A stretch of DNA of 6,970 bases, taken from the IMG/VR virus record IMGVR_UViG_2547132415_000017, positions 1 to 6,970 of that record; one strand, 5' to 3'. The stretch's first letter is position 1; the number at the start of each line of letters is the position of its first letter. Below the pieces are notes generated by a model. That model was given only the letters and a program-made list of their open reading frames with translations, had not been told where the DNA came from and ran no database searches. Source of the DNA: a virus. Taxonomy: Duplodnaviria > Heunggongvirae > Uroviricota > Caudoviricetes. A program made the translations under genes and the position numbers. This document shows, piece after piece, positions 1 through 6,970 of this stretch.

Positions 1-1
1 G

Positions 2-2503
2 GTGGCGCGTAACGCGTCCGCGGTGGCACAGAACACGGCAGCCGCGAAGAAGTCAGCCGGCGATGCCAGCACATCAGCCCGTGAGGCGGCAACCCATGCG
101 ACTGATGCTGCAGGCTCAGCACGCGCAGCCAGCACGTCAGCCGGACAGGCCGCGTCGTCGGCTCAGTCAGCGTCTTCCAGCGCAGGAACGGCATCAGCAA
201 AGGCCACTGAAGCATCAAAAAGTGCTGCCGCTGCAGAGTCCTCAAAAAGCGCGGCGGCCACCAGTGCCGGTGCCGCGAAAACGTCTGAAACGAATGCTGC
301 AGCGTCACAACAATCAGCAGCCACTTCTGCATCCACCGCGACCACGAAAGCGTCAGAAGCTGCCACCTCAGCCCGGGATGCGTCGGCTTCAAAAGAGGCG
401 GCAAAATCATCAGAAACGAACGCATCATCAAGCGCCAGCAGCGCAGCTTCCTCGGCAACGGCGGCAGCAAATTCTGCGAAGGCGGCAAAAACGTCCGAGA
501 CGAACGTTAAGTCTTCTGAAACGGCAGCGGGACAGAGTGCCTCAGCTGCGGCAGGCTCAAAAACAGCGGCTGCATCATCTGCCAGTGCCGCGTCAACAAG
601 TGCCGGGCAGGCCTCAGCCAGTGCCACTGCCGCCGGAAAATCGGCAGAAAGCGCTGCATTGTCCGCTTCAACAGCCACAACGAAGGCTGGCGAAGCCGCT
701 GAACAGGCCAGCGCAGCAGCGAGGTCAGCTTCCGCAGCGAAGACATCCGAAACGAACGCGAAAGCGTCGGAAACCAGCGCAGAATCCTCAAAAACGGCTG
801 CCGCATCGTCAGCCAGTTCGGCGTCGTCATCGGCCTCATCGGCGTCTGCTTCAAAAGATGAGGCGACCAGACAAGCGTCAGCAGCGAAGGGCAGCGCCAC
901 GACGGCATCCACGAAGGCAACAGAGGCTGCTGGCAGTGCGACGGCGGCATCTCAGAGCAAAGTTGCTGCTGAATCCGCGGCAACGCGTGCCGAAACAGCG
1001 GCAAAACGGGCAGAGGATATTGCTGATGCCGTATCTCTGGAAGATGCGAGTACGACGAAAAAAGGTGTGGTTCAGCTCAGTAGCGCCACTAACAGCCCGT
1101 CTGAAACGCTGGCTGCGACACCAAAAGCGGTTAAGGCGGTAATGGATGAAACGAACAAGAAAGCGCCCTTAAATAGTCCTGCACTGACCGGAACGCCAAC
1201 AACGCCAACTGCGCCAAAAGGTACTAATAATACTCAGATCGCAAGTACGGCTTATGTGATGGCCGCGATTGCCGCCCTTGTAGACTCGTCGCCTGACGCA
1301 CTGAATACGCTGAACGAGTTAGCGGCGGCGCTGGGCAACGACCCGAATTTTGCGACCACCATGACTAACGCGCTTGCGGGTAAGCAACCGAAAGATGCCA
1401 CCCTGACGGCGCTGGCCGGGCTTGCTACTGCGGCAGACAGGTTTCCGTATTTTACGGGGAATGATGTCGCCAGCCTGGCAACCCTGACAAAAGTCGGGCG
1501 GGATATTCTTGCGAAATCGACCGTTGCTGCCGTTATCGAATACCTCGGTTTACAGGAAACGGTAAATCAGGCTTCTGGCGCATTACAGAAAAACCAGAAC
1601 GGCGCAGATATTCCGGGAAAAGATACCTTCACCAAAAACATTGGTGCCTGCCGCGCATATAGCGCATGGCTGAATATTGGTGGCGATAGTCAGGTCTGGA
1701 CAACTGCGCAATTTATTTCGTGGCTGGAGAGTCAGGGGGCATTTAACCATCCTTACTGGATGTGCAAAGGCTCATGGGCTTATGCAAATAATAAGGTTAT
1801 TACAGATACAGGTTGCGGAAATATTTGTCTTGCAGGTGCTGTGGTGGAAGTTATTGGCACTCGCGGCGCAATGACCATACGCGTTACTACGCCGAGCACG
1901 TCCAGCGGTGGCGGAATTACTAACGCTCAATTCACTTATATTAATCATGGTGATGCTTACGCTCCTGGCTGGCGACGAGACTACAACACGAAAAACCAGC
2001 AGCCTGCATTTGCTTTAGGGCAAACAGGACGCAGGGTCGCAAATGATAAAGCTGTTGGCTGGAACTGGAATAGCGGTGTTTATGATGCAGATATCAGTGG
2101 TGCATCGACATTAATCCTCCACTTCAATATGAATGCGGGGAGTTGCCCTGCTGTACAGTTCCGCGTGAATTACAGGAACGGCGGTATTTTTTATCGTTCA
2201 GCGCGTGATGGTTATGGCTTTGAAGCTAACTGGTCAGAGTTTTACACCACAACACGCAAACCCTCTGCGGGGGATGTTGGTGCATATACGCAGGCAGAAT
2301 GTAACTCAAGGTTTATTACAGGTATTCGCCTTGGCGGTCTGTCATCTGTTCAGACATGGAAAGGCCCCGGCTGGTCTGACAGGTCAGGTTATGTCGTTAC
2401 GGGTTCAGTTAACGGAAACCGTGATGAATTAATTGATACAACTCAGGCAAGGCCAATTCAGTATTGCATTAATGGGACGTGGTATAACGCGGGGAGTATT
2501 TAA
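2..2503 (+). CDS. Phage side tail-fibre protein (Stf-like), 5'-partial; constant part 2..~1545, variable receptor-binding C-terminal cassette ~1546..2503
   Basis: ORF open from the window edge (833 codons). The N-terminal ~330 aa are Ala/Ser/Thr-rich with a recurring AAK(T/S)SETNA motif. A fibre-type segment follows (KKGVVQLSSATNSPSETLAATPKAVKAV...). The C-terminus ...RPIQYCINGTWYNAGSI parallels the C-terminus of the opposite-strand cassette (...FRPIQKYINGTWYNVVQV). The ORF crosses the left crossover site in frame (VIEYLGLQETVN). Stop TAA at 2501-2503. Confidence 0.9.
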   Translation: MARNASAVAQNTAAAKKSAGDASTSAREAATHATDAAGSARAASTSAGQAASSAQSASSSAGTASAKATEASKSAAAAESSKSAAATSAGAAKTSETNAAASQQSAATSASTATTKASEAATSARDASASKEAAKSSETNASSSASSAASSATAAANSAKAAKTSETNVKSSETAAGQSASAAAGSKTAAASSASAASTSAGQASASATAAGKSAESAALSASTATTKAGEAAEQASAAARSASAAKTSETNAKASETSAESSKTAAASSASSASSSASSASASKDEATRQASAAKGSATTASTKATEAAGSATAASQSKVAAESAATRAETAAKRAEDIADAVSLEDASTTKKGVVQLSSATNSPSETLAATPKAVKAVMDETNKKAPLNSPALTGTPTTPTAPKGTNNTQIASTAYVMAAIAALVDSSPDALNTLNELAAALGNDPNFATTMTNALAGKQPKDATLTALAGLATAADRFPYFTGNDVASLATLTKVGRDILAKSTVAAVIEYLGLQETVNQASGALQKNQNGADIPGKDTFTKNIGACRAYSAWLNIGGDSQVWTTAQFISWLESQGAFNHPYWMCKGSWAYANNKVITDTGCGNICLAGAVVEVIGTRGAMTIRVTTPSTSSGGGITNAQFTYINHGDAYAPGWRRDYNTKNQQPAFALGQTGRRVANDKAVGWNWNSGVYDADISGASTLILHFNMNAGSCPAVQFRVNYRNGGIFYRSARDGYGFEANWSEFYTTTRKPSAGDVGAYTQAECNSRFITGIRLGGLSSVQTWKGPGWSDRSGYVVTGSVNGNRDELIDTTQARPIQYCINGTWYNAGSI
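1533..1566. repeat. Left inversion crossover site (gix/pix/hix-like), embedded in frame in the tail-fibre ORF
   Basis: ttatcgaatacctcggtttacaggaaacggtaaa; its reverse complement matches 4578-4611 at 32 of 34 positions. The 26-bp core TTATCGAATACCTCGGTTTACAGGAA resembles serine-invertase crossover sites as I recall them. Central dinucleotide TC here versus GA at the right site. Confidence 0.85.
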
Positions 2504-2505
2504 CG

Positions 2506-3039
2506 ATGATGCACTTAAAAAACATTACTGCTGGCAACCCTAAAACAAAAGAGCAATACCAGCTAACAAAGCAATTTAACATCAAATGGCTTTATTCAGA
2601 TGATGGAAAAAACTGGTATGAGGAACAAAAGAATTTCCAGCTAGACACTTTGAAAATGGTCTATGACCATAACGGCGTTATTATTTGTATTGAAAAGGAT
2701 GTTTCAGCAATTAATCCAGAGGGTGCAAGCGTCGTTGAATTACCTGATATTACAGCAAATCGCCGGGCTGATATTTCGGGGAAATGGATGTTCAAAGATG
2801 GCGTAGTGATAAAGCGAACTTATACCGAGGAAGAGCAGAGGCAACAAGCGGAAAATGAAAAGCAAAGCCTGTTGCAACTTGTCAGGGATAAAACCCAGCT
2901 ATGGGACTCACAGCTACGGCTGGGCATCATTTCCGACGAGAATAAACAAAAATTAACCGAGTGGATGCTCTATGCGCAGAAAGTCGAATCTACAGACACT
3001 TCCGGCCTGCCAGTAACGTTTCCCGAACAACCAGAATGA
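2506..3039 (+). CDS. Tail-fibre assembly protein (Tfa family), cognate to the expressed fibre cassette
   Basis: 177-aa ORF with ATG 2 nt after the fibre stop (TAACGATG) and GGGGAG 9-14 nt upstream. The N-terminal ~110 aa are closely similar to the opposite-strand paralogue ([22 protein letters not shown]...DGKNWYEE...PDITANR...SGKWMF), with divergent C-termini. Stop TGA at 3037-3039. Confidence 0.88.
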   Translation: MMHLKNITAGNPKTKEQYQLTKQFNIKWLYSDDGKNWYEEQKNFQLDTLKMVYDHNGVIICIEKDVSAINPEGASVVELPDITANRRADISGKWMFKDGVVIKRTYTEEEQRQQAENEKQSLLQLVRDKTQLWDSQLRLGIISDENKQKLTEWMLYAQKVESTDTSGLPVTFPEQPE

Positions 3040-3043
3040 GAGA

Positions 3044-3061
3044 AGGCCCGCTATCGGGCCT
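3044..3061. terminator. Bidirectional hairpin between the convergent tail-fibre assembly genes
   Basis: AGGCCCG-ctat-CGGGCCT (7-bp GC-rich stem, 4-nt loop), followed by TTAATTTTT on the plus strand and flanked by T-rich sequence on the minus strand. Sits in the 28-bp gap between the stops of the two Tfa genes. Confidence 0.6.
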
Positions 3062-3067
3062 TAATTT

Positions 3068-3595
3068 TTACTCTGGTTTTTGTGGCCATTCAGGATTTGC
3101 CGTATCCACACGGCTGACCAGAACACTGTAGCGTTCCCATGCTTCCAGTCGTGTGCGTTCCTCGTCTGTTGCCATATTCAGCCTGACAGCGCGTTCCAGC
3201 GGTTGGATGACTGATTCAGCTTCGGAAAGCAATGCGGCCTTTTGTGATTCGGCCTGTTGTTGTTGCTCGTCTGCCGTATAAATCCGTTTAACCACAGCTC
3301 CGTCCCTAAACATCCACTTACCGGAATCATCAGCGCAGCGGTTGGCTGTAATATCTGGAACCTCAACGACGCTATAACCTTCAGGGTTAAGCGTGGAGGC
3401 ATCTTTGGTGATGGCGACAATAATATTATTTGCATCGTAAACAATCTTTATTGTGTCTGGCTGAAAGTTTTTCACTTCCTCATACCAGTTTTTTCCGTCT
3501 TCGGACCATAACCAGATAACATCAAAATTCTTTGTTAGCTGATATTGTTCTTTTGTTTTTGGATTTCCAGACTTAATATTTTTTAAATGCTGCAT
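3068..3595 (-). CDS. Tail-fibre assembly protein (Tfa family), alternative copy for the silent cassette
   Basis: 175-aa ORF on the minus strand, paralogous to 2506..3039. Its ATG lies 3 nt after the stop of the upstream minus-strand fibre cassette, mirroring the plus-strand arrangement. Confidence 0.88.
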
Positions 3596-3598
3596 AAA

Positions 3599-4603
3599 TT
3601 ACACCTGTACGACGTTATACCATGTGCCATTGATGTATTTTTGTATTGGTCTGAATACTGCCGGATCATCGCCATCAACTGCACCGATAATGCCAAGCCC
3701 CGTAATTGCATGACCTGATTTCTCATACATCACGCCTTTTTGCATAGTCTGAACAACACGTGTACCAAGTCGGACATCTCTCACATAACGTGAGTCAAAA
3801 TTACCATAATTGCCGGGAATAACTTGCGCACCGCAAAGCCAGTTGCCATTGTTGTCCATGTACGCCTGACCATCGGTGCCATTGGCTGTCCTTGAGTTAT
3901 TAATCATGTAGATGCCAAATTGCTTATTCCCCAGTCCACCAATCATAAATTTGCGATCAGCGTGGTCCTGACGAAGTAATGCCTGCGCACCATCGGTGGA
4001 TACCGCATTGCGTCCCAAAATAACATTCTGGTCACGCATATGAATCCACATGCCGGTACTACTGTTAATTGCAAAACGGTTTGCAAATATATCCCCTGTA
4101 ACATCAAGACCATGCCCCATGCTTATCCGACCAGTTCTGAGATTAAGCGTAAAGGGGCGTAGTGGCCCTATATCACCATTTTCTCCCTCATTCTCTCGTG
4201 TAGGGATGATATGCAGGCATTCTTCAGAACGACGAAAAATAGCACCAAAAGATGAATTAAATATCCTCAGTGCATTGACTGTCGATATTTTTACTTCACT
4301 GCTGAAAAGGGCTTTAACAAGGACAGACAAAGCATCCCATTTAAGAGTCATCAGGTCTTTTGTTGTGGTGCTCTGGCGGCTTCTCCATTTGAAATATTCA
4401 TTGCCGTTGTCGCCTGTTTCAAACCACATGTATGAATCAGTGTCGCTGTCGGCATTATTTTTAAAACCAATCTTTGCCCAGTCAGTATTTCTAATCCAGG
4501 CAAGGATTGAGTCGTTTTCAAAAGTAAGCCCACCGGACAAGGTATCGCCATTCTTTTGCACGGCGTTCCTGGCCCTGTTTACCGTTTCCTGTAAACCGAG
4601 GTT
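3599..4603 (-). CDS. Silent alternative tail-fibre C-terminal cassette (Sv'-like); no own start or promoter, expressed only after inversion fuses it to the constant fibre region
   Basis: Minus-strand frame is open for about 334 codons from directly after an in-frame TAA (4604-4606) through the right crossover site (N-LGLQETVN-RARNAVQKNGDTLSGG...) to a stop at 3599-3601. The early sequence parallels the plus cassette (QETVNQASGALQKNQNG...). The C-terminus ...FRPIQKYINGTWYNVVQV parallels ...RPIQYCINGTWYNAGSI. The M at 4561 in the ORF track is a GTG and is probably not a real start. Confidence 0.8.
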   Translation of the reverse strand, partial: NLGLQETVNRARNAVQKNGDTLSGGLTFENDSILAWIRNTDWAKIGFKNNADSDTDSYMWFETGDNGNEYFKWRSRQSTTTKDLMTLKWDALSVLVKALFSSEVKISTVNALRIFNSSFGAIFRRSEECLHIIPTRENEGENGDIGPLRPFTLNLRTGRISMGHGLDVTGDIFANRFAINSSTGMWIHMRDQNVILGRNAVSTDGAQALLRQDHADRKFMIGGLGNKQFGIYMINNSRTANGTDGQAYMDNNGNWLCGAQVIPGNYGNFDSRYVRDVRLGTRVVQTMQKGVMYEKSGHAITGLGIIGAVDGDDPAVFRPIQKYINGTWYNVVQV

Positions 4604-4611
4604 TTAGATAA
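4578..4611. repeat. Right inversion crossover site (gix/pix/hix-like)
   Basis: tttaccgtttcctgtaaaccgaggttttagataa; core TTCCTGTAAACCGAGGTTTTAGATAA. Inverted copy of 1533-1566 with 2 mismatches. Lies about 55 bp upstream of the invertase start. Confidence 0.85.
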
Positions 4612-4665
4612 TGGCGGTTTCTGGCCTGCATGGCATGATTTGTGCTTTTGGACGGGAGATTCAGC

Positions 4666-4860
4666 GTGCTGATTGGCTATGTAAGGGTATCAACAAATGA
4701 CCAGAATACAGACCTGCAACGAAACGCTCTTGTTTGTGCAGGATGTGAACAAATATTTGAAGATAAATTAAGCGGAATAAGGACAGGCCGACCTGGATTA
4801 AAACGTGCTTTAAAGCGCCTTCAAAAAGGTGACGCACTGGTTGTCTGGAAACTGGACTGA
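4666..4860 (+). pseudogene. pin: Serine DNA invertase (Pin/Gin/Cin/Hin family), truncated: 64 intact N-terminal codons then TGA; a degenerate 3' remainder continues to about 4995
   Basis: GTG at 4666 preceded by GGGAGA (4654-4659). Product VLIGYVRVSTNDQNTDLQRNALVCAGCEQIFEDKLSGIRTGRPGLKRALKRLQKGDALVVWKLD matches the conserved invertase N-terminus, including the catalytic-serine motif YVRVSTNDQ. Stop TGA at 4858-4860 sits where intact invertases have Arg (WKLD-RLGRS...). The next in-frame codons ([12 protein letters not shown]) still weakly resemble LGRSMKHLISLV, after which no frame resembles an invertase. A full-length gene of about 190 codons would not fit before the convergent gene ending at 5066. 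Confidence 0.8.
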
Positions 4861-5003
4861 CTGGGTCACTGTATGCGGCATCTTGTCGTGCTGGTGGTGG
4901 AAGCCTGGAAGAAGTATCGGGTGTTGCTGAACCGTGTTAATACAACAACTGCACCGGATATTGAATGGCCAACAGGACCCATTATCGAATAGTGCATTAC
5001 GAA

Positions 5004-5036
5004 CTGCAGGATATTATATGGGATAATATTCTGCAG
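5004..5036. terminator. AT-rich palindromic hairpin between the invertase remnant and the 3' end of the GGDEF gene (possible bidirectional terminator)
   Basis: ctgcagGatattat-atggg-ataatattctgcag: 14-bp stem with one mismatch and a 5-nt loop, followed by TTTATTGGGGCTGTATTTT on the plus strand. Confidence 0.4.
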
Positions 5037-5065
5037 TTTATTGGGGCTGTATTTTAAAAAGGTGT

Positions 5066-6397
5066 TTATTTTGAGTGAGTTATCACCTTGTTTTTTCCGG
5101 TTCTTTTGGCTTGATATAACGCTTTATCGGCATTGACTAACATTTCAGATGGACTGAGATTATTCTCTTTTGAAGTAAAGCAACCAATACTGACAGTTAT
5201 TTTCTCAGGTCCATGCGATAATAATTTTTCCGAGCATTGCTCTTCAATGTTTTTTCTGATTCGCTCTGCAATTGATAGCAAGAGCTTTTGAGTATTACCT
5301 TTAATGATAATACCGAACTCCTCACCGCCTAAGCGCCCTAATATATCCTCTTTCCTGATGGATTTTTTTATTATTCTGGTAACCATTACTATGACTTGAT
5401 CACCCATATGATGCCCCCATTTGTCATTGATGCTTTTGAAATTGTCAATATCTAACATTATTACTGAGAAATCATGGTGTTTTGATATATTCTTCAATGA
5501 GTCAATAAAGTATCTTCTATTGTATGTATTCGTTAGTGGATCATGAATTGCCATATGATTAGCATGATTTAATTTCCTGAAAACATAATACATGAGTGTT
5601 GAAATGATATAAATCATTGATATCAATTCAAGAAATTTTGTCATGTACCATGCAGGATGGGATTTATCAATAAAATACAATAAAATTAGATTATTGCATA
5701 CTGACACTATACTAATAAGTATTATACACAACCATATTTTTGAGTAATTACGTATGCTGATGCATGAGCTGATAAGTAATACAAGCCAAAATACTGATAT
5801 TATTTTGGTGTACACGATATTCCACGTCGGCAAATGACGATTCAGCGAGTATTGTATAATATTAAGACTATATTTTATATTGTCACTGCTTAGATTTTTT
5901 GCTACAAACGGAGTAATAAAAAGAATTAATATTGACAAAACAACAATTATTATGTTTCTTTTATCTTCTAAAACACTTTTGTTTTTAACATTGGTGGAAT
6001 AAACAGCCAGAAAGATTATAGATATAAAGCTGAACTGACGGAATAGATAATATATTGCGATATCATTTGATTTCTGATAGATTGTAGATAAATCGTTACC
6101 TAACGGAGATAAAGAAATAATAGCCACTTCTAATAAATAATACGTGTTGCTCAAAAACGCGAATGAAAGAATTAAGAGATAACTTTGTCTCTGATTAGAA
6201 ACATAGTAAAGCAATAGAAAAATAAAAATCATCAGGTTTATGAAAAAAAGCCCAATAATGAAAACACTATAACTTATTTGTGTTGTTTGTGTTATGTATA
6301 TTCCATTATTTGCATGCAGTAACAAAAATATAATAGAGATGCATGAAAATAAAAAGATGAAGATTTTTATTTTTATAGGTACCTGGTTGATAATCAT
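5066..6397 (-). CDS. Membrane-anchored GGDEF-domain diguanylate cyclase: about 8 predicted TM helices (MASE-type sensor region, possibly YcdT/DgcT-like) plus a C-terminal GGDEF domain
   Basis: 443-aa ORF. The N-terminal ~275 aa are strongly hydrophobic, with about 8 stretches of 19-25 residues. The C-terminal domain has canonical GGDEF-domain motifs: DPLTNTYNRRYF, IMLDIDNFKSINDKWGHHMGDQVI, and RLGGEEFGII (GGEEF encoded at 5315-5329). An RxxD motif (RKED) sits 5 residues upstream of GGEEF. Also ADKALYQAKRTGKNKV. ATG at 6397-6395 with AGGTG 7-11 nt upstream. Very AT-rich. Family assignment of the N-terminal domain is from architecture only and is unverified. Confidence 0.88.
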   Translation of the reverse strand: MIINQVPIKIKIFIFLFSCISIIFLLLHANNGIYITQTTQISYSVFIIGLFFINLMIFIFLLLYYVSNQRQSYLLILSFAFLSNTYYLLEVAIISLSPLGNDLSTIYQKSNDIAIYYLFRQFSFISIIFLAVYSTNVKNKSVLEDKRNIIIVVLSILILFITPFVAKNLSSDNIKYSLNIIQYSLNRHLPTWNIVYTKIISVFWLVLLISSCISIRNYSKIWLCIILISIVSVCNNLILLYFIDKSHPAWYMTKFLELISMIYIISTLMYYVFRKLNHANHMAIHDPLTNTYNRRYFIDSLKNISKHHDFSVIMLDIDNFKSINDKWGHHMGDQVIVMVTRIIKKSIRKEDILGRLGGEEFGIIIKGNTQKLLLSIAERIRKNIEEQCSEKLLSHGPEKITVSIGCFTSKENNLSPSEMLVNADKALYQAKRTGKNKVITHSK

Positions 6398-6655
6398 GTA
6401 CGCACCTGAGAATGATATATATATAATATGTATCGCTACAAATAACGATAATTTCTTACTGGTGATAGTATACTATTATTCTGGTTAATCGCTGTCAAAT
6501 TGATGATTTTGGTTAGTATTGCAATAGCGAAGAGTTTGATCCGGTAAGACTGGCTAGGCAAGGCTATACCAAAAAATCAGTGTAGGTTCAGAAAATGATG
6601 CACCATACAATCATCAATAATTTCAAATTGTCCATTGTGCATAAATCATAAAGAA

Positions 6656-6692
6656 AACCGCAGCACGTCGTATGCAAGAACGTGCTGCGGTT
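6656..6692 (-). terminator. Rho-independent-type terminator hairpin oriented for minus-strand transcription
   Basis: Perfect 12-bp stem aaccgcagcacg / cgtgctgcggtt (6656-6667 and 6681-6692) with a 13-nt loop. On the minus strand it is followed by TTTCTTTATGATTTAT; on the plus strand the following sequence is not T-rich. Confidence 0.5.
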
Positions 6693-6878
6693 GGCTGGTG
6701 AACTTTCGATAGTGCGAGTATTGAATGATTTCCAGCTGTTGCCGATTTTACTATGTTTTCAGTAGAACACTTAGACAAAACTGAGGCACACAAATCTTTG
6801 CACTGGATTGCAAGGCTTTGTGCTTCTCTGGAGTGCGACATGTTTGATAACAAAAAATTAGCGCAAGAAGACAAAAAT

Positions 6879-6970
6879 TAGACTGGCCCCCTGAATCTCC
6901 AGACAACCAATATCACTTAAATAAGTGATAGTCTTAATACTAGTTTTTAGACTAGTCATTGGAGAGCAGA
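6879..6970 (+). mobile_element. IS2 insertion sequence, left terminal inverted repeat and leader (partial; continues beyond the window)
   Basis: TAGACTGGCCCCCTGAATCTCCAGACAACCAATATCACTTAAATAAGTGATAGTCTTAATACTAGTTTTTAGACTAGTCATTGGAGA... matches the IS2 left end as I recall it, the region just upstream of the transposase orfA start. Recognised from memory, not by search. Confidence 0.8.

Follow-up and report, generated by a model that had tools for sequence, protein, structure and literature searches.

The DNA examined here, 6,970 nucleotides in all (the window in what follows), forms the right-hand end of a lambdoid prophage integrated at the lambda attachment site; loci nearly identical to it run on into ybhB-bioABFCD. 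It opens on the plus strand with stf, the side tail fiber gene, in what we call orientation A (2-2503, the N-terminus being cut by the window edge). This gene was taken from the ORF listing, and in near-identical loci it is annotated as 'prophage tail fiber N-terminal domain-containing protein'. Its constant part extends to 1546 and its variable C-terminus A occupies 1547-2503. The N-terminal part (window 1-1000) has long low-complexity repeats rich in Ala, Ser and Thr, with 61-62% GC and long spurious ORFs in other frames. Next come tfa, encoding the chaperone for C-terminus A (2506-3039, plus strand; Pfam Caudo_TAP, E = 1.7e-35), and, on the minus strand, tfa', encoding the chaperone for C-terminus B (3068-3595; Caudo_TAP, E = 7.3e-38), and the alternative Stf C-terminus B itself (3599-4597; Pfam Gp34_trimer, E = 4.5e-11), a cassette that is without promoter or start codon in the window orientation. 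The two alternative C-termini and both Tfa chaperone genes together form an invertible segment of about 3.05 kb (1547-4597).

Two 26-bp sites with the 12-2-12 layout of gix flank this segment. The left site (1533-1558, inside stf) reads TTATCGAATACC TC GGTTTACAGGAA, and the right site (4586-4611) reads TTCCTGTAAACC GA GGTTTTAGATAA and matches Mu gixR at 25 of 26 positions. The sites are in inverted orientation and lie within a 38-bp inverted repeat, I2 (1529-1566 and 4578-4615, 92% complementary); those of the dgcX locus, to which the window belongs, share a 25-bp identical core. Natural inversions break inside the sites, the junctions in locus L003 and others falling within 1529-1571. Flipping the segment in silico gives an uninterrupted stf of 847 codons followed by tfa'. 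Either orientation of the window therefore yields an uninterrupted stf ORF with its own Caudo_TAP gene, and both forms are annotated in natural genomes.

To the right of the segment lie the remains of an invertase gene, described below, and then dgcX (5066-6397, minus strand), a convergent prophage cargo gene at lambda attB that encodes a MASE4-GGDEF diguanylate cyclase (Pfam GGDEF, E = 9.6e-45; MASE4, E = 7.4e-36; ybhB-bioA downstream). The same gene, at the same chromosomal site and adjoining lambdoid prophage DNA, has been reported as cargo by Richter et al. 2014 (PMC4287979); the available extract of that paper has no mention of an invertible tail fiber module or of an invertase stub upstream. 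The dgcX block (5001-6500) has 28-35% GC compared with 47-62% in the adjoining tail fiber genes, a difference that would agree with a foreign origin of the cargo. A near-perfect palindrome (ctgcaggatatta...taatattctgcag, 5003-5037) between the facing stop codons of the upstream reading frame, a tfa remnant, and dgcX is probably a bidirectional terminator; it is also kept in strain S43, which has the native tfa-dgcX arrangement. A 41-nt terminator-like hairpin at 6654-6694 (aaaaccgcagcacg...cgtgctgcggtt) recurs with 97.6% identity at positions 8224-8265 of locus L002, in the interval from ynaM to uspF where the Rac prophage region has its right end. The left end of an IS2 (6879-6970) interrupts the region downstream of dgcX. 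Most relatives match only to 6878; the closest relative of the window, strain YJ6, also has IS2 at this locus.

Full-length serine invertases of the Din family (Gin, Cin, Pin, Hin) have about 185-195 residues. The reading frame that begins with GTG at 4666, the same start codon as that of Mu gin, ends at a TGA after 64 codons (4666-4860, plus strand). Its product matches Pfam Resolvase (E = 3.5e-18, profile positions 2-73 of 145) and is identical at 61 of 64 positions to residues 1-64 of the 193-residue Mu Gin (PDB 4M6F, 3UJ3; E = 3.6e-36); the nucleophile Ser9 is kept, in the sequence YVRVST (motif YxRVST). In nucleotide alignments, 4560-4856 shows 93-95% identity to gin from Mu, D108, SfMu and related phages, and codons 1-36 (4666-4773) are 100% identical to Mu gin. 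Opposite the TGA (4858-4860), Mu gin has CGC and K-12 pinE has CGG, the first Arg codon of the second catalytic motif, D-R-L-G-R; the next Arg of the motif is replaced by His, in a stretch past the stop that still resembles PinE. This ghost (codons 66-78, 4861-4897, plus strand) was identified by alignment with K-12 pinE, to which its last 25 consecutive nucleotides (4873-4897) are identical. After codon 78 there is no invertase-like sequence in any frame, and the room before the convergent ORF at 5066-6397 is too small for a full invertase gene. The product, 64 of 193 residues, is without the helix E oligomerization interface and the C-terminal helix-turn-helix DNA-binding domain. Because the D-R-x-x-R motif is missing as well as these two parts, the encoded protein is no functional Din-family invertase and is unable to recombine DNA.

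A sequence-only reading of this stretch had anticipated much of the above. It described near-canonical invertase codons with the catalytic serine motif, a TGA in place of the conserved Arg after WKLD, too little room for a full gene, and a truncated product lacking the dimerization helix and the DNA-binding domain; it accordingly called the gene a pseudogene and argued that inversion would need an invertase acting in trans. All of these points hold, and the last agrees with the finding that the locus encodes no invertase besides the defective stub. The DNA alignment to pin and gin that it proposed places the nonsense change at 4858-4860 and the breakpoint at about 4897/4898.

Is the stop real, and could a 64-residue protein still serve as a short functional invertase variant or as a regulator? 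Annotation pipelines might suggest so, since in most genomes PGAP treats the 64-aa ORF like any other CDS ('recombinase family protein', WP_001378636.1). The calls are inconsistent, however: elsewhere the stub is marked as pseudo, and an alternative call is a 72-aa protein starting at GTG4642 (WP_306299112.1). Against either possibility, the identical TGA and the identical downstream joint recur in dozens of independent assemblies at three loci. The TGA is kept in 16 of 18 independently assembled dgcX-locus genomes and in the copies at the Rac and trp loci, a recurrence that rules out read-through readings of the TGA as well as the sequencing error at 4858 that the earlier reading had named as a possible way out. 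The other two dgcX-locus genomes (L012/L019) have TGG at this position together with a new stop at codon 29, and the trp-locus copies L025/L026 have an extra stop at codon 61 and another in the tfa remnant. These stops at codons 29 and 61, independent steps of pseudogene decay, are tolerated, and the tfa sequence past codon 78 means that no frame restores an invertase. An assembly error or a functional short protein is thus extremely improbable, the product being the first third of Gin and devoid of the parts named above. With a stop at codon 65, fusion to an unrelated coding sequence at codon 78, and further stops in relatives, 4666-4992 is a scar, a pseudogene and not a working gene.

The sequence that follows the ghost (4898-4992, plus strand) is the 3' end of a tfa gene, comprising its last 31 codons and a TAG, in the same frame as the stub. 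It matches Caudo_TAP at profile positions 104-130 of 131 (E = 3.5e-10), its identity is also supported by DNA alignment to K-12 tfaR and to S43 tfa, and PGAP labels it 'tail fiber assembly protein, missing N-terminus'. The earlier description of a weak ghost followed by nothing invertase-like was therefore right about the ghost but took as empty a stretch that is tfa. Since tfa follows the ghost, what was taken for a deletion is an illegitimate fusion that links the 5' part of an invertase gene to the 3' part of a tfa gene. The joint lies at about 4897/4898, at codon 78, with microhomology of at most ~3-4 bp.

The same joint and the same TGA are found in three contexts, namely the Rac locus, a trpA/ompW prophage and the dgcX locus, which speaks against a nonsense change plus a deletion in place, as had been proposed. 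The Rac-locus copy (strain TUM9868) matches window 1-4971 at 98.4% and has an intact pinR 100 bp downstream on the other strand; it is colinear with the tfaR-pinR region of K-12 Rac from the tfa remnant through pinR, ydfK/ynaE and ynaM. The window differs from K-12 Rac in that its tfa remnant switches to a dgcX-type end and pinR is absent, its place being filled by dgcX; K-12 Rac, for its part, has no invertible segment. In the trp/ompW-prophage copy (L025/L026, 4297-4813) the scar has three stop codons in all and is followed by a gene for a class I SAM-dependent methyltransferase. Divergence between the three contexts is confined to the terminal part of the tfa remnant. The native dgcX arrangement is seen in strain S43, where dgcX comes after stf and a full-length tfa and there is no switch. 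The window is of the scar type up to ~4923 and of the S43 type from ~4944, which puts a second, homologous crossover, the link between the scar and the dgcX-type tfa end, at about 4912-4955, in the ~75-bp tfa remnant.

A search of 5426 complete E. coli genomes found the scar junction in 536, with the methyltransferase gene as neighbor in 410, dgcX in 91 and pinR in 19. A Rac-type locus with pinR was first assumed to be the ancestral context of the scar, an assumption that was dropped as only 19 of the 536 genomes have it. It is of note that dgcX itself is by no means restricted to these 91 scar-bearing genomes, being present in many more besides. The scar is a single old illegitimate joint that has since spread to at least three prophage contexts. 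In the sequence of events that we propose, the first 78 codons of a Gin/Pin-type invertase gene (codons 1-64 Mu-gin-like, codons 65-78 pinE-like, with TGA at the catalytic Arg codon) would have been joined once to the last 31 codons of a lambdoid tfa. Homologous recombination within the stf and tfa sequences on either side would then have carried the tail fiber module from one lambdoid prophage to another; in the attB-lambda prophage it now lies immediately upstream of dgcX, at a locus that has no invertase gene.

Does the segment still invert? The flipped right junction was built in silico and both versions were searched against the 5426 genomes. At the stub-dgcX locus, 64 genomes have orientation A, as in the window, and 27 have the flipped orientation B (~30%); both sets contain junctions 100% identical to the query. 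Eighteen of these loci, 9 A and 9 B, were compared in detail and all have the same scar. In L003, L006 and L008-L014 the segment is inverted, at 99.7-99.8% identity, between otherwise identical flanks. Some A/B pairs hardly differ outside the segment. Strain 13C1065T (A) has 0 mismatches to cM2a and PSS-13 (both B) in 4.3 kb of left flank and 7.6 kb of right flank. PSS-16 (A) and 2018-02-2CC (B) differ at 1 and 3 flank positions and have in common the derived Q29*/TGG allele. In both cases a 3087-bp segment is inverted from site to site at 99.7-99.8% identity. A third pair, 63-2 (A) and YSP8-1 (B), has 5 mismatches in the 7.6-kb flank, and YSP8-1 keeps only ~2.5 kb of the inverted segment, the rest having been removed by IS1. 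Different haplogroups, by comparison, differ by 20-150 sites. Fitch parsimony on a neighbor-joining tree of the 7.6-kb right flank requires at least 7 orientation changes among 17 loci.

The copies in the trp/ompW prophage behave likewise, with 144 genomes in one orientation and 239 in the other. L025 and L026 differ by 1 nt in 6.1 kb of flanks and have the segment inverted; the identical core of their two sites is just 12 bp long (ACCTCGGTTTAC, surrounding the central dinucleotide), and the inner half-sites, which are polymorphic, change places when the segment inverts. Such a short core together with the half-site swap would fit a site-specific rather than a RecA-type exchange. For this prophage, isolates named 4/0 on the one hand and 4/1-1 and 4/4 on the other differ in orientation. 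The switch has been flipped repeatedly in natural populations despite its dead local invertase. The suggestion made beforehand, that it is probably frozen, is refuted as a general statement by the two orientations, the sister haplotypes, the parsimony count and the trp-locus counts.

A frozen switch would mean that, with its own invertase dead, the segment is fixed in its present orientation and the second cassette is a fossil. The local invertase is indeed non-functional, and some carriers are physically locked, their left site having been deleted or cut by IS1 (L001/L016, with a J::tfa' deletion, L006, L010 and L018). Six of about 68 scored genomes, moreover, have no other invertase-like sequence on the chromosome (see below). 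The population data run the other way: the identical lesion occurs in both orientations, sister haplotypes with 0-8 SNPs in 7.6 kb have opposite orientations, and the flips demanded by parsimony have to be accommodated. Both cassettes also remain intact ORFs and the window keeps both sites, its closest relative YJ6 having two other invertase-like loci on the chromosome. We accordingly regard freezing as unlikely for the locus as such; it is true only of particular genomes, those that have lost the left site and a few in which no other chromosomal invertase is detectable.

A different objection is that orientation differences arise by RecA-dependent homologous recombination between the 38-bp inverted repeats, with no invertase involved. 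The 25-bp perfect core of the dgcX-locus repeats is close to the minimum for RecA-mediated exchange, and the junction sequences there fit either mechanism. That said, flips are frequent relative to sequence divergence, the sites are canonical gix-type 12-2-12 sites, and the trp-locus orphan, whose identical core of 12 bp sits on the crossover dinucleotide, is nevertheless found in both orientations between flanks that are nearly the same. Inversion in trans of the e14 P segment, a segment of another prophage, by PinQ and PinR of Qin and Rac has been shown experimentally, according to the available text of Kirigo et al. (PMC12529663). RecA-dependent exchange is on these grounds a very improbable source of the orientation differences.

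Flipping by invertases of other prophages is the most likely explanation, and we looked for such enzymes with a composite query of dgcX, the pinE 3'-half and pinR, scored as the number of matching places per chromosomal record. Invertases were scored by presence and number of places on the chromosome, plasmid-borne ones such as P1 cin being separate records. The query has matches in 4704 of the 5426 genomes, mostly through its invertase parts. About 62 of the 68 scored genomes with a stub-dgcX locus have at least one additional invertase-like place on the chromosome. Six genomes have none by this query: four in the flipped state (74-2, ET474, PSJ-14 and PEC1003) and two in the unflipped one (MB52 and ET76). 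Either they must have inherited their orientation, or an enzyme encoded by a plasmid or phage, outside the per-record counts, must have set it; PEC1003 and ET76 retain both sites.

An invertase acting in trans would also need the recombinational enhancer. For Hin and Gin this element spans 65 bp, has Fis sites at its two ends and lies ~100 bp from one recombination site, such as hix (PMC3798978), and the available text of the same paper, citing Kahmann et al. 1985, locates the Mu enhancer 'within the invertase gene'. The stretch of the stub that matches the Mu enhancer region is identical to Mu gin DNA, and we place a presumed Fis-dependent enhancer at 4687-4750, ~90-150 bp from the right site, with candidate Fis 15-mers (G-N13-C) at 4687-4701 and 4736-4750, 49 bp apart. 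Scar copies differ by few substitutions, ~2 in the 64-nt enhancer and ~3 in the other 110 nt. The putative distal 15-mer has two of these, C4750T (L012/L019) and G4745A (L025/L026), in haplotypes that still differ in orientation, a point against use of the stub's putative enhancer, which may nonetheless serve in inversion. The locked state of e14 may be a parallel case: as given in the available text of PMC12529663, the published Keio deletion of pinE locks the e14 P segment although PinQ and PinR are present, and this may reflect loss of an enhancer inside the 5' coding region of pinE.

The cis-acting parts all appear intact: the two gix-like sites, both Stf/Tfa cassettes, and the 5' stretch of gin in which Mu has its Fis enhancer. 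Because everything needed in cis appears to survive without an invertase gene in the locus, we hold it to be quite probable that this is an orphan switch, in which a dead stub sits beside intact cis parts and the segment is flipped in trans; we infer both the acting enzyme and the use of the enhancer in the stub. Invertases from elsewhere (PinR/PinQ, PinE, or Gin- or Cin-type enzymes) would bind both sites, form a complex with enhancer-bound Fis and invert the 3.05-kb segment, thereby exchanging the tail fiber tip and its chaperone.

How does this orphan switch compare with known systems? With the G segment and gin of Mu (and of D108 and SfMu) it shares an invertible segment of ~3 kb that swaps tail fiber C-termini and chaperones, a right site 1 nt from gixR, the distance between that site and the start codon, and the use of GTG as start. 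Unlike in Mu, its invertase gene ends after 64 codons and runs into a tfa remnant, no invertase is encoded in the locus, and its host element is a lambdoid prophage with a Stf/Tfa-type fiber. The P segment and pinE of e14 likewise form an invertible stf/tfa cassette in a cryptic E. coli prophage, and ghost codons 65-78 of the stub are pinE-like. From the available text of PMC12529663, the e14 segment can be flipped by invertases of other prophages and is inverted in 33% of 562 genomes, about a third, much as at the stub-dgcX locus (30%). The two differ in that e14 keeps an intact pinE, whereas the window has only the 5' third of an invertase gene and depends entirely on enzymes in trans; the e14 segment is also shorter (1.8 kb compared with 3.05 kb), and the sites of the window are gix-type. 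The locus is a Mu-G-type invertible tail fiber segment transplanted into lambdoid prophages, with its own invertase reduced to a stub, and by analogy its mode of action would be that of the G, C and P systems, except that the enzyme comes from elsewhere in the cell.

The kind of system and cross-complementation among its enzymes were already known, and PGAP already flags the fragments. New are the detailed structure of the scar, the finding that it arose once and then spread widely, and the population evidence that this orphan switch flips frequently. For annotation this means that a dead recombinase gene beside an invertible segment does not imply a dead switch, a point that matters as the 64-aa stub is usually annotated 'recombinase family protein'. 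Assembly and typing are affected too, since strains that are otherwise nearly identical repeatedly differ in the orientation of the 3-kb segment, a structural polymorphism. About 10% of complete E. coli genomes have the truncated module, which occupies three prophage contexts and is still flipping; this extends the recent finding that invertases of one cryptic prophage act on segments of another. What orphans conserve may be the 5' end of the invertase gene, with its putative enhancer. As a tentative proposal, which we think somewhat doubtful, the stub may persist in ~10% of E. coli genomes for the sake of its Fis enhancer, as part of a cis-only client switch run by PinR, PinQ and PinE. If this is true, enhancer loss would explain why a full pinE deletion locks e14, cryptic prophages would share an inversion network, and the host might use that network for phage defense, as reported for e14 StfE2.
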